From: Candidatus Pacebacteria bacterium CG_4_9_14_0_2_um_filter_40_15 | GTDB lineage: Bacteria; Patescibacteriota; Microgenomatia; UBA1400; PJMF01 | Direction: 5' to 3' | DNA length: 49,170 nucleotides | Assembly: GCA_002788675.1 (NCBI GenBank) | Contig: PFRS01000004.1 | Location: 1-49,170, forward strand | Shown here: positions 1,672-11,844 of the stretch, piece by piece | Layout of the letters: each line of letters begins with the position of its first letter | Position numbering within the stretch: the stretch's first letter is position 1 | The notes under the pieces: generated by a model | The model's input: only the letters and a program-made list of their open reading frames with translations | Told to the model about the DNA's origin: nothing | The model's database searches: none | Translations under genes and position numbers: made by a program

Positions 1672-2073
1672 TTACTCTTCAACTTCAGTTTCAACTGTTT
1701 CAGAAACATCTTCTGCAACTTCAGTTGCTTTGATGTTTTTGATTACTAACATTTCGATAATAGTATCGAGTTTTTTAGTAAGAGTTGCAAATTGTTGTGA
1801 GTAATCAACTTGTGGTGCTTGAGGTCGACTTGGTCTGTCTGAAAAACTTCTCTTGCTAGAGAAATCTCGGCCACCGCCACGGTTGTTACCGCCGCCTTGA
1901 CTCTCGAAACAGTCACTACAAAATACTGGTTTGCCACTTGATGGCATGAAAGGAACTTTACAGTGACTTCCACATTTTGCACAAGTTGCGTCATGCATTT
2001 GTCTATCAGATGAGCCTCTTCGATCGAAATCTCTGCCACCTCTATTACCACCACCTCTGTTGTTGTCGTACAT
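1672..2073 (-). CDS. CxxC-x17-CxxC zinc-ribbon protein with Gly/Arg-rich flanks
   Basis: MHDATCAKCG..CKVPFMPSSGKPVFCSDCF motif. Confidence 0.85.
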   Translation of the reverse strand: MYDNNRGGGNRGGRDFDRRGSSDRQMHDATCAKCGSHCKVPFMPSSGKPVFCSDCFESQGGGNNRGGGRDFSSKRSFSDRPSRPQAPQVDYSQQFATLTKKLDTIIEMLVIKNIKATEVAEDVSETVETEVEE

Positions 2074-2212
2074 ATTCTTTTCTTGTGTAGCCCCCGGCTA
2101 CGTGCTTTGTATAAGGTGTAAGTATAGCATGAAATAGCTTATAAGTATATGAGGGGTGATGTTTTCAGGGTTTGAACAGTGGAAAAGGATTGAGTTATGC
2201 TACTTGTTTAGT

Positions 2213-2365
2213 TGAAGGCTCGGGAGGACTTCTCGCTCACTTCGTTCGCTGCGAGATGCTCGTGCTTGAGGAGGCTAACGCGATTTACTACTCGCATAAC
2301 GAACCATAGCCTCTCTCCTACCCCAATTCACACATAAAAAAACACCCTTTGGGTGTTTTCTCTGT
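2213..2365. repeat. tRNA-3'-end-associated structured mini-element including the original tRNA-Val terminator
   Basis: Degenerate tRNA-Val end TGAAGGCTCGGGAGGACT (2213-2230); hairpins TCTCGC/GCGAGA and GAGGCTA/TAGCCTC; terminator AAAACACCC-ttt-GGGTGTTTT. Confidence 0.55.
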
Positions 2366-2367
2366 GT

Positions 2368-2508
2368 GAACTAGGAGGAACAAAGCTTGAACTTTTTGCA
2401 TCATTGAAACAAGCGATTATTTTGCATTGGGAGTTGCGGGATCTCGATATGCAGATTTTTTCTGATGCAAAGGAATATAGTGGTTTCGTTGACTATTTTA
2501 AGTACTGA
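2368..2508 (+). other. Displaced 3' end of the recombinase gene (46 sense codons, in frame after att joining)
   Basis: GAA CTA GGA GGA ACA AAG CTT ... AAG TAC TGA, open in the frame set by the recombinase's GGT GAA CT at the core. Confidence 0.65.
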
Positions 2509-2605
2509 TACCTATAGAGATAGTGAAATCCTGTTTCCTTACAACTGAACAAATGCAACTTTTTAGCTTGGGAGACACTGTTCAATACTGGACAGCATTT
2601 TGCGC

Positions 2606-2637
2606 TTGAAATAGTTATACAAAATGTATATATTTCA
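2606..2637 (+). promoter_or_regulatory. Sigma70-type promoter of the retron-like operon, overlapped by an imperfect palindrome
   Basis: TTGAAA(2606)-17 nt-TATATT(2629); TGAAATAgtTATAC-aaaat-GTATATATTTCA. Confidence 0.55.
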
Positions 2638-2640
2638 GCT

Positions 2641-2950
2641 GTACCTTAATATTATTACTTTAAATCCCGTAGCGCTGTTCTCGATACAAGACACTCGTTT
2701 GTCTCAAACTCATTTCTCAAGTACAGAGAGATAAGACTTCAACCAAGCACTAATTATATTTGCTTTTTTTGCTTATTTGGTGACACTGATCTGTCAACAT
2801 GGTCTAGATCTATAGAGGCGACCACTTTGCGTGAGAACATATGGGCCGTGTTTATGACGTGTCACTCTACCTTTACTAAGGTAAGATCCAAAGAAAGGAA
2901 TACCCAATATGGCAGAAACACAAATAAATTCTTTTATTAAAGTAGTAGTA
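2641..2950 (+). ncRNA. Putative retron msr-msd-like structured RNA
   Basis: 14-bp long-range stem 2650-2663/2937-2950 (two G-U pairs); inner stem 2666-2682/2833-2845; several local hairpins; directly upstream of HTH-RT. Confidence 0.7.
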
Positions 2951-3073
2951 AGTGTGTCGCCCTTGAGGGTGTTACGAGATGCAGTATTTACTGTTTATCG
3001 TACGGATTTTCAGACTTATTTTCTGGATTTTCCGTTTATTAGAGTCGCTCAGACGCTAGTAAGCACCCTCTAA
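2909..3073 (+). CDS. 54-aa small protein, putative retron effector (absent from the ORF track)
   Basis: AAAGGAA Shine-Dalgarno, then ATG; MAETQINSFIKVVVSVSPLRVLRDAVFTVYRTDFQTYFLDFPFIRVAQTLVSTL; stops 35 nt before the HTH gene. Confidence 0.6.
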   Translation: MAETQINSFIKVVVSVSPLRVLRDAVFTVYRTDFQTYFLDFPFIRVAQTLVSTL

Positions 3074-3108
3074 CTCACTAATATCAGAAAAAATTTTATC
3101 TAAAAACT

Positions 3109-3432
3109 ATGTATTCACTTCCAAATTTTTTAAAAGCATTTCGTAAAGCAACAAACTCTTCTCAGGCTGAGTTTGCAAACTTTCTGAATGTTTCAACAGT
3201 TTTAATATCAATGATCGAGTCACAACAAAAACAAGCATCAAAGAAGTTCATTGAAAATCTAGCAAAAAAAATTGATGTGCATCCTGGAGCTCTTGCATTA
3301 TTTTATTATAATGATGAAGACAGAGAGAGATTAACAAAATTAGAGAAGGAACTTGTTAATATTGGCACAGAATTACAGAGGAAAATTATTTTAAAAAGAG
3401 CAAAAAGCATTAAAATTAATGAAAAAAAATAA
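3109..3432 (+). CDS. XRE/Cro-C1 family helix-turn-helix protein, RT-associated
   Basis: LKAFRK...SQAEFANFLNVSTVLISMIES HTH pattern; 14-nt overlap with the RT gene. Confidence 0.85.
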   Translation: MYSLPNFLKAFRKATNSSQAEFANFLNVSTVLISMIESQQKQASKKFIENLAKKIDVHPGALALFYYNDEDRERLTKLEKELVNIGTELQRKIILKRAKSIKINEKK

Positions 3433-4390
3433 CTACCCACAGTTTGGCATTCGTAGTAAAAATGAATTAGCTAAGCGTATTAGTTCAAAATCTTTACCAG
3501 CTAATGAGGCTCTTATTTTAATAAATGATGTACTTGAAAACCATGAGGGATACTGGAAGGACAGTAAAATGTCTGAACCTGAAAAGGGTAAATATGTCCG
3601 TTCATGTGTTGGAACTCCACTTCATAGATTACTGAACCTCATCGATAAGAGAATACTTAGACCTTATGACAAGTTAGCGCCCCACTTTATTTTTGGTGGA
3701 TTATCAAAAAAAAACCATATCCAAGCTGCTCATTATCTTATTGGTTCAAAAAAAAGAAGGTCTCTTATCAAACTTGACATAAAAAGATTCTATGAACAGA
3801 TCACACAAGAAAGAATTTTTTATTTTTTTTATAAAAAAGCAGGTTGCAGTGTTAGGGCATCTAGACTACTTGCATATATTTGTTGTGTTACCCAAGGTGC
3901 AAAAGGGAATCCCGGTGTTCAAAGGGTTTTAGCTCGCGGCTTTTCTACGTCTTCTCGCCTGGCTGTCTGGGCTAATCTTGATACTTTTTTGAAATTGAGA
4001 TGGAAATTGCAAGCTGAGCTTGGGAAAAATGATCCCAAAATTGCAGTGTATGTTGATGACATTGGGATTTCTGTGGCTGATGTGTCACAGACAAAATTAG
4101 AAGAGATTGCATTAATGATGGCTGAGATTCTCGAGTCATCTGATGCAAATCAACCTTTGCCTATTAATAACGAAAAATTAGATATTATGAGTTTTGAAAA
4201 GAATGCAGAGCACTTAGGTCTGAGGCTAGGGAGAAAAGCTATTTTTATGGGTAACAAGATTATGTCAAAGATTCGTAAGATTAAAAATGACTACCAAAGA
4301 GCTGAAAATAATACAAAATTTAAACTAATGAGTAAGAGAATTGCATATCGTCTATATCAGAAACAAATTGATAAACAAAATGAACAGTAG
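3419..4390 (+). CDS. Reverse transcriptase, divergent retron-like
   Basis: LDIKRFYEQI, LARGFSTSSRLA (PQG-equivalent), catalytic YVDD, INNEK, HLG; 323 aa with no maturase or nuclease domain. Confidence 0.9.
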   Translation: MKKNNYPQFGIRSKNELAKRISSKSLPANEALILINDVLENHEGYWKDSKMSEPEKGKYVRSCVGTPLHRLLNLIDKRILRPYDKLAPHFIFGGLSKKNHIQAAHYLIGSKKRRSLIKLDIKRFYEQITQERIFYFFYKKAGCSVRASRLLAYICCVTQGAKGNPGVQRVLARGFSTSSRLAVWANLDTFLKLRWKLQAELGKNDPKIAVYVDDIGISVADVSQTKLEEIALMMAEILESSDANQPLPINNEKLDIMSFEKNAEHLGLRLGRKAIFMGNKIMSKIRKIKNDYQRAENNTKFKLMSKRIAYRLYQKQIDKQNEQ

Positions 4391-4433
4391 ATATGTGAGT
4401 GACATGAACAAAATTTCAGAGATTATCGCCTTT

Positions 4434-4955
4434 TTATTTTTTGTCCAAGCTAAGTTTTTTCAACATTGCTTTATCAGCTTTTGCAGTAAGTCTTTTTTCA
4501 ATTGTCTCTGATTTTATTTCGTTTTCTCTATTTTCTTCAAAAACAGGTTGTAGATCTTCAAGATACTTCATACTGATTCTGTTAGAAAGAATGCTTTCTT
4601 GCGCATTTAACCATGCAGCATAGTCTTGTAGTACCATAGCTGTTTGTTTAATATCAAACTTGAATTTTTCTTGTAGGTGGATATTTAATCCAGATATTTT
4701 TTCTTGTTTTAAACCGACTTCGCTGATTTCTCCCACTCGCCTATTGTATTCCTTTTGCCCTCTCATTTTGATCATGATTTCGCTGCTCTTTTCGATATCA
4801 TCAAGAACATCAGCTAAAGATTCTTTAAACCGCTGTTCACTTCTAAAAACATAGTCGGTAATTTTTTCCATTGCTTTCTGAGGTTGTTCACTCGCCCAAT
4901 TTTGAAGCAAGCCGTATGCAATAAAAATTATTACTAAAACAACAACAATTTCCAT
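4434..4955 (-). CDS. Hypothetical protein with N-terminal membrane anchor and helical body
   Basis: 173-aa ORF with hydrophobic N-terminus. Confidence 0.75.
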   Translation of the reverse strand: MEIVVVLVIIFIAYGLLQNWASEQPQKAMEKITDYVFRSEQRFKESLADVLDDIEKSSEIMIKMRGQKEYNRRVGEISEVGLKQEKISGLNIHLQEKFKFDIKQTAMVLQDYAAWLNAQESILSNRISMKYLEDLQPVFEENRENEIKSETIEKRLTAKADKAMLKKLSLDKK

Positions 4956-5288
4956 AGAATCCCTTTTCTAATAGCTTCTTTGGATTATTTAGTAGCTATT
5001 CTATATTAGAACCAATTATACAGTAGTACTGTCTTATTACGATTTTGACTAAGAAGCAATAGAACTTTTTGACACACATGATGTACAACTCTGCTACTGT
5101 AAAGTGATATTCTTTACAGAAAACAACTTATAGTGTATGCTATAAATCTGTCCAGCACCCACTTATATCTCAACTTTGTTGTGATATGTCCAGGGTGCTT
5201 TTTTGTAGCATTTTTGCTGTTACATAGCAGGTGTAATGGAGATAAGGACTTGTATTATTAAAACTGCATTTAAATCTATAACAAGTGC

Positions 5289-6029
5289 ATGGAAGGAATT
5301 ATGAAAATATTTATAGATGAGTCAGGCGACCATAATCTTGACTCGACAAAGTTGGATAATAGCTACAATGTTTTCGTGCTGGGAGCAGTATGTTTTTCTG
5401 AAGATAACTATCAGTTACTTTGTGAGAGGCTTAATCAGATAAAGCAAGACCTATTTGGTGGCAAAGATTACATAATTCATACAGCTGAGATTGTTAGACC
5501 AAGCAATTCTACAGATCCACGAACACAATTATTCAATAATATAGATTTCAGAAATACATTTTATTCAACAATAGAGAATATTTTTGACGAAATCAATTTT
5601 GAAGTGATTGCTTGTTGTGTTAAGAAATCACAGCATCTTGAGAGATATGGAGCATATGCTAGTGACCCGTACATATTTGGTTTTGAAAACATCTTGAATA
5701 GAATAATGTGGAGGTCAAAAGGTGAAAAATGTGAGATATACCCTGAAAAAAGATCTCAAGCTGAAGATGGATTGCTTGAAATTAATTATTTAAAAGCAAA
5801 AATGTCGGGCACGAAGTTTTTTACTGGTAGTCAGGTATCCGCTAGAATTGAGACTTTTAAAACAATTGATAAAAAAGCTAATGAGTGTGGGTCACAGATT
5901 GCGGACCTAGTTGTAAGTCCGATTGGAAGACATTTTATGGGTATCAAACCTAGAAAACCGGGAAATGAACTTAAATATCAGACTGTTAAGCGAAAAATTC
6001 CAAATAGGTGTCTCACTGTGTTTCCGTAG
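5289..6029 (+). CDS. DUF3800-like protein (RNase H-like acidic motifs)
   Basis: N-terminal IFIDESGD, FVLGAV, C-terminal QIADLV. Confidence 0.85.
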   Translation: MEGIMKIFIDESGDHNLDSTKLDNSYNVFVLGAVCFSEDNYQLLCERLNQIKQDLFGGKDYIIHTAEIVRPSNSTDPRTQLFNNIDFRNTFYSTIENIFDEINFEVIACCVKKSQHLERYGAYASDPYIFGFENILNRIMWRSKGEKCEIYPEKRSQAEDGLLEINYLKAKMSGTKFFTGSQVSARIETFKTIDKKANECGSQIADLVVSPIGRHFMGIKPRKPGNELKYQTVKRKIPNRCLTVFP

Positions 6030-6030
6030 A

Positions 6031-6105
6031 AATAAAAAAAGAGCCCCCGCTCCGCAGTGACTCTTTATTACATGTATTCTATTATATTTTTATGCTTTGC
6101 GTCAA
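6031..6105 (-). ncRNA. Possible tiny antisense transcription unit convergent on the DUF3800-like gene
   Basis: Minus-strand TTGACG-18-TAGAAT followed by hairpin AAAGAGTC...GGCTCTTT and a T tract. Confidence 0.35.
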
Positions 6106-6181
6106 TATCAATATTTATTACTCAGAACGTGCGGTTTTATCGGGTATTTCTGTGGGACATTTAGTGCTGTTTTTATTTCGT

Positions 6182-6391
6182 TTAAAAACCCAAAAGTTTT
6201 GAAGCGGTACTATCCAAAGCTTTAGTGAGCTTTTTGATAGTTTTTATAGTAGAGTTGCTATTTCCAGACTCAATAAAACGAATTGTTCTCACATCTCGAT
6301 CAATTTGGTATGCCAGTTCCTCCTGAGAAAGCCCGAGCGCTTTTCTTCGCGTCCGAACATTTTCACCAAATACCTGAAATATACTTCCCAT
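6182..6391 (-). CDS. XRE-family HTH regulator (controller-protein-like)
   Basis: FGENVRTRRKALGLSQEELA...IESGNSN. Confidence 0.9.
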   Translation of the reverse strand: MGSIFQVFGENVRTRRKALGLSQEELAYQIDRDVRTIRFIESGNSNSTIKTIKKLTKALDSTASKLLGF

Positions 6392-6464
6392 ACAGCAAGA
6401 ATATGAGATAATGACTTGGAATGACAGGAAATATATTACCTATTCTTGCATATGTTAAATACAA

Positions 6465-7091
6465 ATGAAAACAAATAGACTAATTTTTCAACTACTTGGA
6501 TCAATAACTGAGTTTTTGTTAGATGATGAAACATGGAAATTGTTTGGTTACAAAAAAAGACCTAAGCGTGGAGCAATTTTTTCAAGACTATTTCCTAAAA
6601 AATATGAACTTGATAACTTTATATTCAGGCATTTTTTCATACTTGGAGTTATTGATGTACTAAATGGAATTAAAAAATCAAAACAGTCGGATTATAATAA
6701 GACGATTGTGATTCTAAACTTTTTTGAAGAAGTGGATGTGTTATCAAAGAACACTGATTGTTTGACTGACTTATTAAAAGACCTACCAACAGCATACGAC
6801 ATATACAAAGAATCAAATCCAAAGAATCTTTATGAGCCATATTTAAGTAAATCGGAAAACGTCCTTGGAAGTACAAATTCAGCAAGATTTCTGATTGGCA
6901 TATCAAAAATTCAGTTTGAACGAATGTTAATGGATATCAGTGCTAAAGACTTTTTCCTTTCTTCAGATCGTGTTGCTGAATTAATAAACACCCAAGACAT
7001 TGCAGCTGTTAAAGAAGATTTGACAGGCTTTTCAAAAGAAACATTAGAAGAGTATGGAAAATTCATATCAAAACTAATTTCCGAAATTTAG
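6465..7091 (+). CDS. Hypothetical protein
   Basis: 208-aa ORF divergent from the HTH gene; no recognised motif. Confidence 0.7.
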   Translation: MKTNRLIFQLLGSITEFLLDDETWKLFGYKKRPKRGAIFSRLFPKKYELDNFIFRHFFILGVIDVLNGIKKSKQSDYNKTIVILNFFEEVDVLSKNTDCLTDLLKDLPTAYDIYKESNPKNLYEPYLSKSENVLGSTNSARFLIGISKIQFERMLMDISAKDFFLSSDRVAELINTQDIAAVKEDLTGFSKETLEEYGKFISKLISEI

Positions 7092-7188
7092 CTCAATTTC
7101 TTGCGAACATCCAGAGTTTTCTTTAGAGTCATGTGTGCGGAGTATTTAGATAAGGCAGGATATCTGTTCAGAGCGTATAATATTTGAT

Positions 7189-7776
7189 ATGCCAGAGCTT
7201 TTTGTAGACAGCAACGATGAGAACGCAATTAAACAACCATTTGGAATTTGGATTGCTTCGCTAGTAGTATTTTTTATTTCAATTTTCTCATTAGCAAGCG
7301 AGCAGCTTGTGGTTTTCATATTTGGATTTTTACTCGTAGCTTCATTTGTTGTAGGAGTAATTGCATTTATTATTATGGTTGTGAGAGTAGTTAGAACTCT
7401 TTTAAAGAATGAATCTTTCAAGAGTGGGTTGGGTTCTGTTATTTCTTATGGAGCTTTTATTATTTTTGGACTTTTCCTCCTAAGAGGTTGTACTTCAAGT
7501 GGAAGTAGCAGCAGTGGCGGAGGAAGATATTATGATGATTACGATAGCTACGATTACTATGAAGAACCTGTAACTAGTGATAGCTGGGACTGTACAAGTG
7601 ACTGTTCTGGACACGAGGCAGGGTATGAATGGGCTGAGGACAAAGGAATCACAGATCCAGACGATTGTGGTGGCAATTCTGATTCATTTATTGAAGGCTG
7701 TGAAGCATATGCAAATGAATACAATATGGACAATTATGATGAAGAGTATTATGACGATTATGATTATTACTATTAG
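7189..7776 (+). CDS. Membrane protein with Cys-rich acidic C-terminal domain
   Basis: About 3 hydrophobic helices, then CTSDCSGHEAGYEWA...DC..SFIEGC and a Tyr/Asp-rich tail. Confidence 0.8.
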   Translation: MPELFVDSNDENAIKQPFGIWIASLVVFFISIFSLASEQLVVFIFGFLLVASFVVGVIAFIIMVVRVVRTLLKNESFKSGLGSVISYGAFIIFGLFLLRGCTSSGSSSSGGGRYYDDYDSYDYYEEPVTSDSWDCTSDCSGHEAGYEWAEDKGITDPDDCGGNSDSFIEGCEAYANEYNMDNYDEEYYDDYDYYY

Positions 7777-7805
7777 TGTGACAATAAGCGCTTATTTTTA
7801 GCCTG

Positions 7806-8417
7806 TTAGTTGGAAATAGTTTCATCTAATTCCCAGACTCCATCTTCGTTAGCTGTTAGTACTTCTTCTTTTTCAAGCTTGTAGCTAGATAGTTTCTCTT
7901 CTAAATCAATATTCCATTTGTAGTAAGAAAAAAGTTTAGTGTCATATGAAATGCTAGATAATGTAACGATATCACGAAAACCATTCGTTAATTCATCCTC
8001 TACTTGGTAAACAGTGCCATCAAACTGTCCAACAACATACCACTGATCATCAACTTCCATTAGTGCCACAATTACTCCATTGCCAGATGCAGTTCTCAAT
8101 GTTACACCACATATTTCCCATGGATAGACTAAGTACTCATTCTTTTGATCATCATTCAGATCGACTTCCTCAATTTTAAAGTCGTGAGGAGTCTGCAATA
8201 CATCTGCTGAAGAACAATTTCCATGCTCTGTTGTAGTGAGAACGTGTTGTAATACTAAGCTGAGTGCGTCTTCGGGGATTTCGACTTTTGATTCTGAAGT
8301 TACCACAGCTATTTCTCTCTGATTGCTATCAAGAAGGATTTGTTCATTTTGAAAGTACTTAAAAGCAAAAAGGCCTGCTATGGTAGCCAAAAAAATCAGT
8401 GCTAAAGATGTACGCAT
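7806..8417 (-). CDS. Exported or membrane-anchored hypothetical protein
   Basis: Signal-like N-terminus; DLNDDQKNE Ca-binding-like loop. Confidence 0.75.
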   Translation of the reverse strand: MRTSLALIFLATIAGLFAFKYFQNEQILLDSNQREIAVVTSESKVEIPEDALSLVLQHVLTTTEHGNCSSADVLQTPHDFKIEEVDLNDDQKNEYLVYPWEICGVTLRTASGNGVIVALMEVDDQWYVVGQFDGTVYQVEDELTNGFRDIVTLSSISYDTKLFSYYKWNIDLEEKLSSYKLEKEEVLTANEDGVWELDETISN

Positions 8418-8618
8418 GTTCTTCTTTCTTTGTTCACTAGTCTGGCACTATCTTAGCACAGCTTGCTATGTTGCAACTTATAGGCGAAGTGCGCAACTTG
8501 ATCAGGAAGTAGAAGCTTGATTGTTGAGATAGATGACCCCTCCTTGTAGGAGACCCACCCTTAAGGAGTTGCTGTATCTATACAAGTAGCTTGATATGTA
8601 TGCAGTCCATTTGTGAGA

Positions 8619-9548
8619 CTAGAACCTAAAAATCATCACTCTCAAAATAGTAGTTAACATTTTGTTGTTAAGTAATTCATCCCAAAAGGAACTACTTTGT
8701 GCTTCAGAATTCAAGTCCGCTACATCTTCATTGAAGCTATCTTCAACTTCAGCTTCGACAGTAACTTCTTGAACTGTTGGGCTTGAAGTCGGGCTAGGAT
8801 CAGGTGCGGGGGTTGGTGCTAGTACTGTGTGTGTTCTTTTCTTTGTCTGACCTGGCACTGAAACTGTTAGTGTATAGGTTGTCTCTTTTTCAGGATTAAC
8901 AATAACACGTCCCTCTTTGATTTGTGTTTGAGTTAGGTTTCCAACTTCAGGAGTAATTGAGTAGCTCGCACCACATTTTGCAACAAATTTAAGTTCTGTA
9001 GTTCCATCATCAAGCTTGTAGGAATTAAACCTGTTTATTGCTATCTCAGGCTCTGGTACATCCACTTCCCAATTGTAGACGCCACTCCAACCACAAGAAT
9101 TTCCGCCTTTTACATTAACATACCATTTTCCTGGAGCAACGTCATTGAAAGTAACGCTTCTTGTTGTTGTATCAGCAACTGGACCCGGGTCGGCGCCTGC
9201 CGTTTTTGATAATGCGACACTATACTCATTGTCGCCAATACCTTTGTCCCAAGTAAAAGTAACATCTTGCTTGCAATCAACTTCTTTGAATTCAAGGCTA
9301 CCCTTAGTATCGCTCAAGTTTGGTTTGTTACAGATAGGTGCAACGTATGTATTCTTTGTTGGTTGGTATGCTGATCCACCATTGTGGTAGTGATACGTGC
9401 CAGCACATGATCCAACGTTACAATTATGCCCACCTGATGAATCTGTTCTGCCTGAATGAGCAAGAGCACTCATGGATGAAGAAAACAAGATTACTAGAGA
9501 AAGAATGAGGATATTTTTGATTTTTGAGTACATAATGTATTTTACCAT
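8619..9548 (-). CDS. Secreted YHYH-motif protein with beta-rich domains and Pro/Thr linker
   Basis: Signal peptide ending ALA-HSGRTDSSGGHNC...TYHYHNGG. Confidence 0.8.
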   Translation of the reverse strand: MVKYIMYSKIKNILILSLVILFSSSMSALAHSGRTDSSGGHNCNVGSCAGTYHYHNGGSAYQPTKNTYVAPICNKPNLSDTKGSLEFKEVDCKQDVTFTWDKGIGDNEYSVALSKTAGADPGPVADTTTRSVTFNDVAPGKWYVNVKGGNSCGWSGVYNWEVDVPEPEIAINRFNSYKLDDGTTELKFVAKCGASYSITPEVGNLTQTQIKEGRVIVNPEKETTYTLTVSVPGQTKKRTHTVLAPTPAPDPSPTSSPTVQEVTVEAEVEDSFNEDVADLNSEAQSSSFWDELLNNKMLTTILRVMIFRF

Positions 9549-9921
9549 AGATCTGAAAAAAGTTATGTCATATAAATAATATAGGATTACTACTAAAGTT
9601 TAAGTCGCGTTGTTTCAGATGAGAGATGTATAACAGCCTTACTTTTGGGTATGACAAGGGGTTGTTTTTAGTTGGGTGCTTCATATAATTACAAAGCTTG
9701 TAAACTGTTCAACTATTTTAAAGTGTGCTAAAAGTAGTTAGTAACAGCAAAAAACTAACTATAAGGTATAGTAATTGCATTTTGTTATGATTGAGACGTT
9801 ACGGCGTCTAGTCCACGTTTTTAATTAAACGTCGTCATGATTGAGGTGTTCTTACTTTGGATGGCAGGTCTTCCTGCCCTTGTTGTGGTGCTCATGCCTC
9901 ACAAATCTAAGTAAGGATATC

Positions 9922-10098
9922 GTGTCAAAAAATACACGCAAATCTCCTAGTAGTAATGTTCAGCGTCTCTCAAATAGAGAAATTGGGGAGTTTCTAGAGC
10001 TAATGCGCTCTGTAGATACTAAGTGCGAGCTTGCAAGGCTAAACGAAACTACTCTGCTCGACAGAAGCGATGATAAGGGTAGAAGAATAAAATACTGA
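9922..10098 (+). CDS. Small protein (58 aa) upstream of the recombinase
   Basis: AAGGA then GTG at 9922; in frame with track ORF 9841-10098. Confidence 0.4.
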   Translation: MSKNTRKSPSSNVQRLSNREIGEFLELMRSVDTKCELARLNETTLLDRSDDKGRRIKY

Positions 10099-10166
10099 TT
10101 TCTCAATACTAAAATAACCTTGAACCATTTTTTTGCATAAGAGTGTTTATAGTATAATTTGTCATT

Positions 10167-11825
10167 ATGTATCAAAAACAAGCATCAGATATCACAAAAT
10201 TAAAATATGCGCTATATATCAGGAAATCTACCGATGACGCGAAAAACCAAGTGCGGTCGACAGAAGATCAGCTCGCAGAGTGTAGAGAGCTTGTAAAACA
10301 ATTAAAGATTAATGTTGTTGGTGATCCAATTATTGAAAAGAAATCTGCAAAGATTCCAGGCTTAAGACCAAAATTCAAGCAACTGCTGAAAGATGTGAAA
10401 GCAGGCAAATACTCTGGCATAGTTTCCTGGCACCCCGATAGATTGGCACGAAATATGCTCGAAGGTGGAAAAATTATTGATTTACTTGATAAAGAAGTAT
10501 TAAAAGACCTCAGATTTGTTACTCATCACTTTACTAATGATGCAACAGGAAAGATGCTACTTGGTATCTCATTCGTTCTTTCAAAACTTTACACTGATAA
10601 CCTTAGTAACAACGTAACCAGGGGTATTCAGGGAAATCTCAAAGATGGTATCGGACTGCATAGAAAGCACGGTTATGCTAAAGATGAGGAGACTGGTCGA
10701 TTTATTCCGGACGTAGATAATGATAATTTCCAGTTAGTAGGTGATGCATGGCAGCTTAGAAAAGAGGGTGCTTCACTTGAGTCAATTGCAGAGTACATGA
10801 ACTCAAAAGGGTATGGAAAACTCATTAAAAGCAGTGGTAAAGAAGTAATAATGGGGAAGAAAAAACTGAGCCTAATTTTTAAGGATACTCTCTACTATGG
10901 CGTTTTGGTTCAGGGTGGTGAGAGTGTTGACTTAAGAACAATACCTGGATATGGGTTTGAACCACTCGTATCAGAAGAAGATTTTTTTGAAGTACAAAAG
11001 TTGAGTAATACAAGGAAACAGCCATATAAAAAGCAAAAACAAGCAAACTACAATCCTTTTAGGCAGTTGATTAAATGCTCATACTGCGGAAAACACATGC
11101 TGATAGCACCTTCCAGTGGTAACAAATATAAATATTTATTTGCAAGATGTGACAACAAGCTTTGTGTAAGAAATTCTGAAGAAAACAAGAAAAAAGATCG
11201 TAATGATCCAACAAAAATAAAAGTATCTGTCAGAGTAAAGGTTGTGCTTGATTTTATTTATAATCTACTCGATAACGGATTGAATTTTTCAGAGGCTGAC
11301 TATAGTGAGTATCTTAAGAATTTTAAAATTCTTAGTGAAAAACAAAAAACTGAAATCACCCAAGAAATTCATATAAAAAGAGGGCTCTTATCAAGAGTTA
11401 GTGCTGAAGTAAAGGACCTATCACTCAGTTATATGAAGCTTGATAAAAGCAAAGAAACAATTAAAAAAGTTACGGAAGAAAAAATCACAGAACTTGAGGA
11501 ACAGCAGTCTCTACTCGAATCTGGTATTAGGAAACTAAAAGAAAAAATTGCTAACCCTGAATCAGAACAACTGACGATTGAAGAGTTCTTGAACCTTTCA
11601 AAAAATGCCGGTACAGTCGTCAAATCTGCAAATGCAATCATTAAGGACAAGATTTGTCGTTTTATCTTCTTGAACCTTTCAATTGATGGCGAAAAAGTAG
11701 TGAGTTTCAGGCTAAGAGAGCCGTTTGAAACACTCATGAACGTAAAAAAAAAGACAATAAGGACTAATGGTGAACTCGAGAGGACTCGAACCTCTGACCT
11801 CTACAATGTCAATGTAGCGCTCTAA
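10167..11825 (+). CDS. Large serine recombinase (resolvase + recombinase + Zn ribbon + coiled coil)
   Basis: YALYIRKST (catalytic Ser), DRLARN, CSYCG...C..C; last codons are antisense tRNA-Val. Confidence 0.95.
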   Translation: MYQKQASDITKLKYALYIRKSTDDAKNQVRSTEDQLAECRELVKQLKINVVGDPIIEKKSAKIPGLRPKFKQLLKDVKAGKYSGIVSWHPDRLARNMLEGGKIIDLLDKEVLKDLRFVTHHFTNDATGKMLLGISFVLSKLYTDNLSNNVTRGIQGNLKDGIGLHRKHGYAKDEETGRFIPDVDNDNFQLVGDAWQLRKEGASLESIAEYMNSKGYGKLIKSSGKEVIMGKKKLSLIFKDTLYYGVLVQGGESVDLRTIPGYGFEPLVSEEDFFEVQKLSNTRKQPYKKQKQANYNPFRQLIKCSYCGKHMLIAPSSGNKYKYLFARCDNKLCVRNSEENKKKDRNDPTKIKVSVRVKVVLDFIYNLLDNGLNFSEADYSEYLKNFKILSEKQKTEITQEIHIKRGLLSRVSAEVKDLSLSYMKLDKSKETIKKVTEEKITELEEQQSLLESGIRKLKEKIANPESEQLTIEEFLNLSKNAGTVVKSANAIIKDKICRFIFLNLSIDGEKVVSFRLREPFETLMNVKKKTIRTNGELERTRTSDLYNVNVAL

Positions 11826-11844
11826 CCAACTGAGCTACGAGTTC
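11768..11844 (-). tRNA. tRNA-Val(GAC)
   Basis: Cloverleaf GAACTCG...CGAGTTC-ACCA; anticodon arm CTACA-TTGACAT-TGTAG; GTTCGAG T loop. Confidence 0.97.

Follow-up and report, generated by a model that had tools for sequence, protein, structure and literature searches.

The 49,170-nucleotide (nt) stretch analyzed here (the window) comprises positions 1 to 49,170 of contig PFRS01000004.1 of “Candidatus Pacebacteria” bacterium CG_4_9_14_0_2_um_filter_40_15, whose genome, of 1.22 Mb in 10 contigs, is 100% complete. Positions 2606 to 4390 very probably constitute a type VI retron whose reverse transcriptase (RT) belongs to a divergent, largely patescibacterial subclade; the retron is cargo of a ~9.4-kb serine recombinase island at a tRNA-Val gene and lies at the left end of that island. 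The type of system is already known: the layout of noncoding RNA, small protein (SP), helix-turn-helix (HTH) protein, and RT, together with two mechanisms, is described in two preprints, on Retron-Vpa2 (10.1101/2025.10.22.683967) and Retron-Sen3 (10.64898/2026.04.27.721009). Rewritten RT motifs, a proposed toxin frame nested in a longer open reading frame (ORF), the presumed coupling of that ORF as a leader to the HTH gene, and a proposed RNA-RNA lock distinguish the system from known type VI retrons but do not make it a new kind of system.

Identity and gene order

Type VI is used in the sense of the Mestre 2020 classification as applied by PADLOC, in which the type belongs to RT clade 3 and has types IV and V as relatives. 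A previous reading of the window from its letters and predicted ORFs (the sequence-only reading) had described an operon of promoter, structured RNA, 54-aa ORF, HTH gene, and RT gene and had likened this order to type VI. All of these elements were recovered at the same positions, with the 107-aa HTH ORF and the 323-aa RT ORF overlapping by 14 nt on the plus strand (Table 1). The comparison with type VI is upheld, since the curated defense models of PADLOC name RT_VI and HTH_VI as best matches of the two proteins, and the RT tree nests the clade of the window among RT_VI-labeled RTs.

Other hallmarks of the type that can be read from sequence are also present. A Cro/C1-type HTH gene (HTH_VI, 7.6e-13) overlaps the RT gene, and two overlapping candidates for the small-protein ORF, referred to as frame A (2909 to 3073) and frame B (2979 to 3059), lie 5' of it. 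The RNA spans these small ORFs and has, besides a long stem-loop, flanking inverted repeats and a ribosome binding site (RBS) that is sequestered, with covariation across 38 loci.

Related loci, 56 in total, were collected by scanning one genome per species with an eight-row RT alignment; a query with the single RT found none. The order proposed from the window recurs among them, with an HTH homologue directly 5' of the RT gene in 49 of 56 loci and the RNA and small ORFs alignable across ~40. The module kept in relatives consists of a −35 box, a palindrome over the −10 box, a structured RNA of ~450 nt, the small ORFs, the HTH gene, and the overlapping RT gene.

A divergent type VI reverse transcriptase

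The RT matched the PADLOC model RT_VI over its full length (residues 6 to 321; 2.6e-27; 93.8 bits), followed by RT_II-A (2.8e-14), and it also matched Pfam RVT_1 (6e-10; 39.6 bits against a cutoff of 29.6). A search over 1.84 billion representatives returned 147 relatives at E ≤ 1e-3, of which 55 reached E ≤ 1e-30. RT_VI was matched by all 38 full-length clade members aligned, and when 30 more distant relatives were classified, RT_VI was the best model for 25 (63 to 267 bits) and RT_IV for 1, while 5 had no match at 1e-55. The tree (69 rows; IQ-TREE quick search, LG+C20, rooted on an RT_IV sequence) placed the RT of the window in a clade of 41 rows with a Shimodaira-Hasegawa-like approximate likelihood ratio test (SH-aLRT) support of 100. 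Its sister group (support, 91) comprises 20 canonical or unlabeled rows, and other canonical type VI rows are more basal. The “distant lineage” of the sequence-only reading is borne out by a clade stem of 1.13 substitutions/site and by the replacement of three motifs retained in canonical type VI RTs.

In general, retron RTs are defined by the NAxxH and VTG signatures. The motifs of canonical RTs of types VI and IV are NAxxH (SAAVH in one locus of a sister family of the same phylum), LPxG(A/S)PTS, and (V/I)TG, whereas the clade of the window has xAAxxL, LARGFxTSxRL (ARG for PxG), and (H/I)LG. In the window itself, QAAHYL, ARG, and HLG occupy the NAxxH, PxG, and (V/I)TG positions when aligned with canonical type VI and IV RTs, and YVDD is intact, exactly as noticed from the letters. 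The altered motifs are derived features of a divergent subclade within type VI.

Weak secondary matches to Drt3a (PADLOC, 3.8e-8; NCBIfam, 4.9e-8) and RT_UG17 (PADLOC, 6.4e-8) could be taken to mean that the retron likeness is superficial and that the RT belongs to another class, i.e., the defense-associated RT/unknown group (DRT/UG), abortive infection (Abi), group II intron, or diversity-generating retroelement (DGR) RTs. This is exceedingly improbable. RT_VI is ahead of every other model by 13 orders of magnitude, the nearest outside relatives of the RT are RT_VI, and the protein has 323 aa without extra domains. An Rfam scan of positions 2000 to 4600 at E ≤ 10 gave nothing meaningful, including no group II intron or other RNA family, and a repeat search of the region detected no template/variable repeat pair.

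Fixation of the NAxxH, PxG, and VTG replacements throughout the clade also raises the question of whether the RT is a working retron polymerase at all. It might instead be a structural partner of the HTH protein and the RNA, which would make the module in effect a toxin-antitoxin or abortive-infection cassette; six type VI retrons of a published census, one of them from “Ca. Levybacteria,” are reported to give no detectable single-stranded DNA (ssDNA) in Escherichia coli (10.64898/2026.04.27.721009). Such a role appears quite improbable, as the catalytic aspartates D120, D213, and D214 and residues K253, R61, and S178 are invariant in the 38 clade members, most of them also in comparison with canonical type VI and IV RTs, and the template-like hairpin is conserved by covariation. 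Retron-Vpa2 is reported to have likewise seemed silent before a sensitive assay was used.

Several observations nevertheless weigh against the assignment as a type VI retron. The RT_VI score of ~94 bits is low compared with 189 to 267 bits for canonical members, and the NCBIfam retron St85 model gives 47.5 bits against a cutoff of 235. The tree has one labeled outgroup, was built by a quick search, and carries SH-aLRT support only. The general signatures of retron RTs, NAxxH and VTG, are lost along with PxG, so RT activity or priming could differ from that of other retrons. The census retrons are reported to have given no detectable ssDNA in E. coli.

As a separate observation, five clade members (P0050, P0051, P0052, P0056, and P0064 in alignments A1 and A4) show W in place of otherwise conserved G (ARWF for ARGF and LLW for HLG). 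The pattern is that of genes with UGA as a glycine codon (code 25) read with UGA as tryptophan, which suggests that Gracilibacteria- or Absconditabacteria-like lineages have members of the clade as well.

Two overlapping small ORFs

Frame B lies within frame A in the +1 frame. Neither small ORF matches any library family, and the 54-aa ORF has no Pfam match. The peptide under amino acid selection seems, from codon statistics and homology searches, to be that of frame B. Over 22 aligned codons in 41 loci, the entropies of its first, second, and third codon positions were 1.37, 0.81, and 1.67, which is a coding pattern. The frame A signature in the overlap is inverted, with the third position most conserved (0.81) and the first most variable (1.67). 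When the same database was searched with phmmer and jackhmmer, the frame A peptide reached one and two loci, respectively, compared with 5 and 33 for the frame B peptide, which is half as long. Frame B starts with ATG in 39 of 42 loci, and an element of at least 4 nt resembling a Shine-Dalgarno (SD) sequence precedes it in 27 of 40, compared with 10 of 40 for frame A and 2 of 40 for the HTH gene. The frame B peptides have 20 to 31 aa (median, 24) and, as medians, a grand average of hydropathy of +1.17, a maximal hydrophobic moment of 0.70, and a net charge of +4; that of the window is predicted to form a cationic amphipathic helix with a hydrophobic moment of 0.66.

Frame A is kept open beyond expectation. 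In 40 of 41 loci, no stop codon interrupts it along frame B, whereas synonymous resampling of the frame B codons predicted 21.7 ± 3.0 (reached in 0 of 20,000 resamplings). Upstream, it has no stop codon for 23 codons or more in all 41 loci, while the medians of the other two frames are 5 and 10. The distance from its stop codon to the ATG of the HTH gene has a median of 9 nt (range, 2 to 35). The HTH start lacks an RBS of its own, and frame A would stay open as a leader cistron that conducts ribosomes to this start, with frame B encoding the toxin. The 54-aa ORF of the sequence-only reading therefore exists and its frame is maintained, but it is probably not the conserved toxin, given the 33 loci reached from frame B compared with 2 from frame A. 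Annotation of the small protein at such loci can choose the wrong frame.

A different assignment of the two frames would make the 54-aa product of frame A the small protein and the frame B peptide a by-product of constraints on RNA structure and composition. Frame A starts with ATG in 40 of 40 loci, has a median of 51 codons, close to the 55 aa of the Vpa2 SP, and occupies the position of the published SPs, in addition to being kept open. The assignment is unlikely all the same: the codon signature is reversed in frame A, its peptide reaches fewer loci than the shorter one, and its conserved C-terminal “VVAL” and middle “LPY” fall on covarying arms of the RNA, while frame B has a start codon and an SD-like element of its own. 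The latter two features also make a programmed frameshift fusing frame A to frame B unlikely. The only breaks among ~42 loci are a TGA within frame B in locus L040 and a TAA within frame A in locus L044.

Covarying helices of the RNA

The segment from 2630 to 3110 folds with −117.6 kcal/mol (z = −3.36), and none of 100 shuffled sequences was as stable. Together with five helices that covary across 38 loci, this substantiates the structured RNA seen in the sequence-only reading. Helices are given below in columns of alignment A3, which contains 38 putative transcripts.

The long msd-like hairpin is presumed, by analogy with Vpa2, to be the template of reverse transcription. It consists of an outer stem (2779 to 2786 with 2859 to 2866), an inner stem (2796 to 2804 with 2844 to 2852), and a 39-nt loop. 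All 10 pairs of the inner stem show compensatory changes, with 89.4% paired; the outer stem was placed by eye, as the A3 columns are out of register there. A segment of the loop pairs with the mRNA directly 5' of the frame B RBS (columns 536 to 546 with 751 to 759), with compensatory changes in seven of nine pairs and 88.1% paired. In 32 of 38 loci, the exact complement of the loop, at least 7 nt long, is found at the same mRNA site although the sequences differ (median length, 8 nt; 4.6 nt when shuffled), compared with direct repeats of at least 7 nt between loop and mRNA in 2 of 38.

The frame B RBS is itself enclosed in a stem (columns 764 to 774 with 893 to 912) in which all 11 pairs have compensatory changes and 89 to 96% are paired; RNAalifold found the same stem independently. 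In the small hairpin of the family (columns 104 to 107 with 136 and 149 to 151), 94 to 95% are paired, with AU/GC and UA/CG exchanges. The long-range helix between the 5' and 3' parts (columns 42 to 50 with 738 to 746) is 78.0% paired compared with 63.6% when shuffled (0 of 500), with a covariation score of 0.423 versus 0.219. Retrons in general have a1/a2 inverted repeats with a branching guanosine from which cDNA synthesis is primed; this covarying helix is a candidate for such a pairing, and no priming G is assignable from the sequence. With this helix set aside, the other four comprise 34 pairs that are 90.1% paired compared with 75.1% when shuffled (0 of 500); 30 of these pairs have changed on both sides versus 19.5 expected, and covariation is 0.531 versus at most 0.12 with slid partners.

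Comparison with known systems

Retron-Vpa2, from the “Large” lineage in Vibrio parahaemolyticus, is reported to produce a hybrid RNA (hyRNA) of ~470 nt that joins msr-msd to a repressed message for a 55-aa SP toxin (10.1101/2025.10.22.683967). The HTH protein restrains reverse transcription, and accumulated multicopy single-stranded DNA (msDNA), which maps to the long stem-loop, derepresses toxin translation; a 7-nt direct repeat is proposed by the authors to allow hybridization of cDNA and RNA (10.1101/2025.10.22.683967). The window resembles this system in the order of structured RNA, small ORF, HTH gene, and overlapping RT gene; in a single RNA of ~450 to 470 nt with a long template-like stem-loop and a small ORF; and in an RBS held in a stem, a 5' end paired downstream, and a candidate toxin with a hydrophobic helix. 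It differs in its RT, which has a long branch of its own and has replaced the motifs NAxxH, PxG, and VTG; in the ~24-aa peptide of its clade, nested in the +1 frame of an open ORF of ~51 codons; and in a template loop that is complementary to the mRNA, which would allow RNA-RNA pairing, rather than repeated in it. The host is a bacterium of the candidate phyla radiation (CPR).

Retron-Sen3, of lineage cl2075 in Salmonella enterica, has a constitutive 79-aa SP toxin with an N-terminal extension that is neutralized by the HTH protein as antitoxin; inverted repeats flank the sequence that codes for the SP, and the RBS is sequestered in a basal stem (10.64898/2026.04.27.721009). The order SP-HTH-RT, the inverted repeats around the small ORF, and the RBS in the basal stem are shared with the window. 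Both toxins, that of the window by prediction, have an amphipathic helix, which is C terminal in Sen3 with a reported hydrophobic moment of about 0.6. Unlike the constitutive Sen3 protein, the window peptide has 26 aa and an RBS apparently locked by three covarying pairings, and the RT belongs to another subclade.

A canonical relative is available within the same phylum. Locus L001 (G016:C5:95781-98817), in a genome of the sister family, has the same arrangement, with an SP of 66 aa, an HTH protein of 99 aa, and an RT of 297 aa whose gene overlaps. Its RT scores 203 bits on RT_VI (1.6e-60), compared with 94 for the window, and keeps SAAVH, PVG, and VNG; its SP, which is helical and hydrophilic, has no relation to either small ORF of the window.

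The hok/mok locus of E. coli plasmid R1 offers a parallel in design. There, the ORF of a small membrane-type toxin and a longer leader ORF overlap in different frames, and the mRNA is controlled by long-range 5'-3' pairing, a sequestered RBS, and an antisense RNA. The likeness is limited to the overlapping ORFs and the RNA lock, as the two are unrelated in sequence and the window shows no evident antisense RNA; in the window, control is proposed to be exerted through reverse transcription and the HTH protein instead.

A possible RNA-RNA lock opened by reverse transcription

As part of the favored explanation of the locus, a mechanism is proposed by analogy with Retron-Vpa2 and Retron-Sen3. One hybrid RNA would hold both the RT template (hairpin 2779 to 2866) and the toxin message, and the toxin would be the membrane-active product of frame B, a cationic amphipathic peptide of 26 aa. 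Its RBS would be locked in the stem of 2965 to 2975 with 3059 to 3070, while the flanking mRNA would be tied by the template loop (2817 to 2822 with 2956 to 2961) and by the 5' end of the transcript (2650 to 2663 with 2937 to 2950). The HTH protein, bound to a palindrome in the promoter, would autoregulate the operon and would also restrain the RT, neutralize the toxin, or both, as in Vpa2 or Sen3, with frame A as the leader cistron bringing ribosomes to its RBS-less start. Upon phage infection, cDNA would accumulate. Copying of the hairpin would occupy or destroy the loop, and free cDNA, identical in sense to the mRNA site, would compete for that loop; in either case, the riboregulator would be released, the toxin translated, and the infected cell stopped.

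Control could also be of the Sen3 kind, with a constitutive toxin, the HTH protein as antitoxin, activation independent of cDNA, and an RT and RNA that serve in sensing or scaffolding. Sen3 itself is reported to act by HTH-antitoxin control, and the tight coupling of leader ORF, HTH gene, and RT gene would tie antitoxin synthesis to ribosome traffic over the toxin region. Constitutive translation of frame B is hard to reconcile with an RBS buried in an 11-bp covarying stem and flanking mRNA held by two long-range pairings, and this alternative is rather doubtful, although it could coexist with riboregulation.

Other observations count against a toxin in frame B under an RNA-RNA lock. The published SP toxins, with 55 and 79 aa, have the size of frame A rather than frame B, and it is frame A that is maintained open. 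In the window, the complement between loop and mRNA is just 6 nt long, and the 5' region of the window is misaligned in A3, so its 5' elements were placed by eye. The locus is present in 24 listed DNA sequencing runs from groundwater and aquifer metagenomes, and no RNA run is among the runs that contain it.

Type VI is the only retron type in which cDNA appears to turn the toxin on instead of restraining it, and how msDNA derepresses the small protein is left open in the Vpa2 and Sen3 preprints. The clade of the window is a compact natural variant with ~40 covarying examples, and the complementarity of loop and RBS region predicts which bases to mutate and compensate. A bolder reading, to which somewhat less than an even chance is given, is that throughout this CPR-wide branch a toxin of ~24 aa is encoded out of frame in a leader ORF that has no function but to remain open and carry ribosomes to the antitoxin/repressor gene, and that an RNA-RNA lock between the template loop and the RBS region of the toxin is opened by reverse transcription itself, which would consume or outcompete the loop. 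If real, this lock would be an answer to the question of msDNA derepression in type VI retrons that can be tested by mutation.

Promoter, operator, and HTH protein

The promoter of the sequence-only reading is present, and its position and sequence are conserved in relatives, where the −35 box is TTGACA in every locus with sufficient flanking sequence. As a lone site it does not stand out from chance, as 11 such sites occur between 2000 and 5200, compared with 11.0 expected. The palindrome between its boxes is single in the window (one match versus 0.03 expected). Among 42 loci, TATAC-N5-GTATA is exact in 32 and has one mismatch in 3, 5 have the looser TAC-N5-GTA only, and 2 have no match. The HTH protein, whose match to Pfam HTH_3 has 28.9 bits against a cutoff of 23, presumably binds this palindrome as its operator.

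TABLE 1 Positions in the window of the retron elements and of the island that carries them
Feature	Position	Strand	Evidence or remark
Left junction, degenerate copy of tRNA-Val 3' end (att-like)	2363..2380	+	Three-way alignment of left and right junctions and the empty site of same-genus genome G001
Promoter: −35 TTGAAA (2606-2611), −10 TATATT (2629-2634)	2606..2634	+	Consensus scan, 10/12; spacer, 17
Palindrome TATACAAAATGTATA, probable HTH operator	2616..2630	.	Between −35 and −10, runs into −10
Putative hyRNA-like transcript (structured RNA and small ORFs)	2641..3108	+	Both ends inferred; fold z score and five covarying helices
5' arm of long-range helix (a1/a2- or IR1/IR2-like)	2650..2663	+	Pairs with 2937-2950; repeat I7, 14 nt, 86% complementary; in minimum free energy fold
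Small hairpin AGACA/UGUCU, then CAAAC	2689..2704	+	Family equivalent AGAUG-N7-CAUCUGACC; window copy placed by eye
Long msd-like hairpin, presumed reverse transcription template	2779..2866	+	Inner-stem covariation; template role from analogy with Vpa2
Loop motif GGCGAC, complement of GUCGCC at 2956-2961	2817..2822	+	Family covariation
Frame A (54-aa) ORF, kept open, protein not conserved	2909..3073	+	Probably a leader cistron coupled to HTH gene
GUCGCC, mRNA partner of msd-like loop	2956..2961	+	Family covariation; directly 5' of frame B RBS
RBS-sequestering stem, brackets frame B	2965..3070	+	5' arm 2965-2975 (including GAGGG), 3' arm 3059-3070
Frame B ORF, 26 aa, MQYLLFIVRIFRLIFWIFRLLESLRR, proposed toxin	2979..3059	+	Nested, +1 frame relative to frame A
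XRE/Cro-type HTH protein, 107 aa	3109..3432	+	PADLOC HTH_VI, 7.6e-13; Pfam HTH_3, 1.2e-6
Retron-type RT, 323 aa	3419..4390	+	PADLOC RT_VI, Pfam RVT_1, tree; YVDD at residues 211-214
Large serine recombinase, 552 aa	10167..11825	+	Resolvase, 1.1e-23; Recombinase, 4.7e-7; Zn_ribbon_recom, 8.8e-4; 3' end overlaps tRNA-Val
tRNA-Val (GAC), integration site	11768..11844	-	ARAGORN; synteny with genomes G001-G004

Distribution of the clade

According to the titles as deposited, 43 of the 56 loci are from Patescibacteria/CPR, 4 from an unspecific “bacterium,” and 9 from organisms with other labels (L009, L016, L028, L035, L039, L041, L044, L046, and L048), which include Micrarchaeota, Planctomycetota, Gammaproteobacteria, Bdellovibrionales, and Bacteriovorax; several of the nine are on short contigs. 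These labels could reflect misbinning, mislabeling, or real transfer. No relatives were found on viral contigs among 156 candidates.

In an even sample of 301 genomes of the phylum, six, including that of the window, match RT_VI at E ≤ 1e-15, each from another family. A retron lineage with rewritten RT signatures has thus spread sporadically over Patescibacteria, where carriage of a retron module is costly because host genomes have ~1 Mb. As the sister-family genome G016 holds a canonical type VI retron in place of the divergent clade, both branches of the type circulate within the phylum. In one sampled genome of the phylum, G286, RT_VI is matched three times over two contigs; a pair of these matches are adjacent halves on one contig and may represent an RT that is split or interrupted.

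A type VI retron of “Ca. Levybacteria” (CPR) was already part of a published census, according to the text of the Sen3 preprint (10.64898/2026.04.27.721009). A literature search found no treatment of retrons in Patescibacteria, the matches being incidental as judged by title, and the combination of Levybacteria and retron led to the Sen3 preprint only.

The island at tRNA-Val

Three findings confirm the mobile island suspected in the sequence-only reading: a genome of the same genus has the empty site, the 3' end of tRNA-Val is repeated in att-like form, and a large serine recombinase is encoded. The island extends over ~9.4 kb, from about 2380 to 11767, with the retron promoter ~230 bp inside its left end. 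As is typical of serine recombinase islands, the recombinase gene is at one end, the tRNA target is duplicated, and a relative has the empty site: homology of G001 to window positions 2220 to 2379 joins directly to 11770 onward. The distance from infC to tRNA-Val is ~130 to 190 bp in the same-genus genomes G004 and G002, compared with 10.4 kb in the window. Two single-contig joints, 2272 to 11768 (X15; side, 28) and 2398 to 11765 (X7; side, 31), resemble the empty site. These joints are few and too short to carry weight, so the island boundary is drawn from the G001 empty site and the junction alignment. Homologues of the recombinase are found near the retron in 2 of the 56 related loci.

The top Rfam match of the region, CRISPR-DR63 (E = 0.5), falls on a hairpin of 9 bp with a T run after it (hairpin 2339 to 2359; region 2326 to 2362). 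This element terminates the upstream core region, is conserved at the G001 empty site, and lies just outside the left island junction.

The neighboring ORFs, i.e., a 173-aa ORF, a DUF3800 gene, a 208-aa ORF, a gene for a zinc-ribbon protein, and a 195-aa ORF, are each present in 0 of the 56 related loci and are therefore not part of the retron system. A standalone DUF3800 protein (Pfam, 1.8e-11) is encoded on the same strand at 5289 to 6029, ~900 bp 3' of the retron. It may be a second defense gene on the island; in the PADLOC models of retron VII-A1, DUF3800 is fused to the RT. A 69-aa XRE-type HTH protein (6182 to 6391, minus strand), which also matches the PADLOC models control-protein, capH, and HTH_VI, is divergently oriented to a 208-aa protein without a family match (6465 to 7091, plus strand), and the pair may be another regulated cargo module. 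Further downstream (7189 to 7776), a 195-aa protein has predicted N-terminal membrane segments, a C-terminal tail very rich in Y, D, and E, and, as its sole match, Tetraspanin below threshold.

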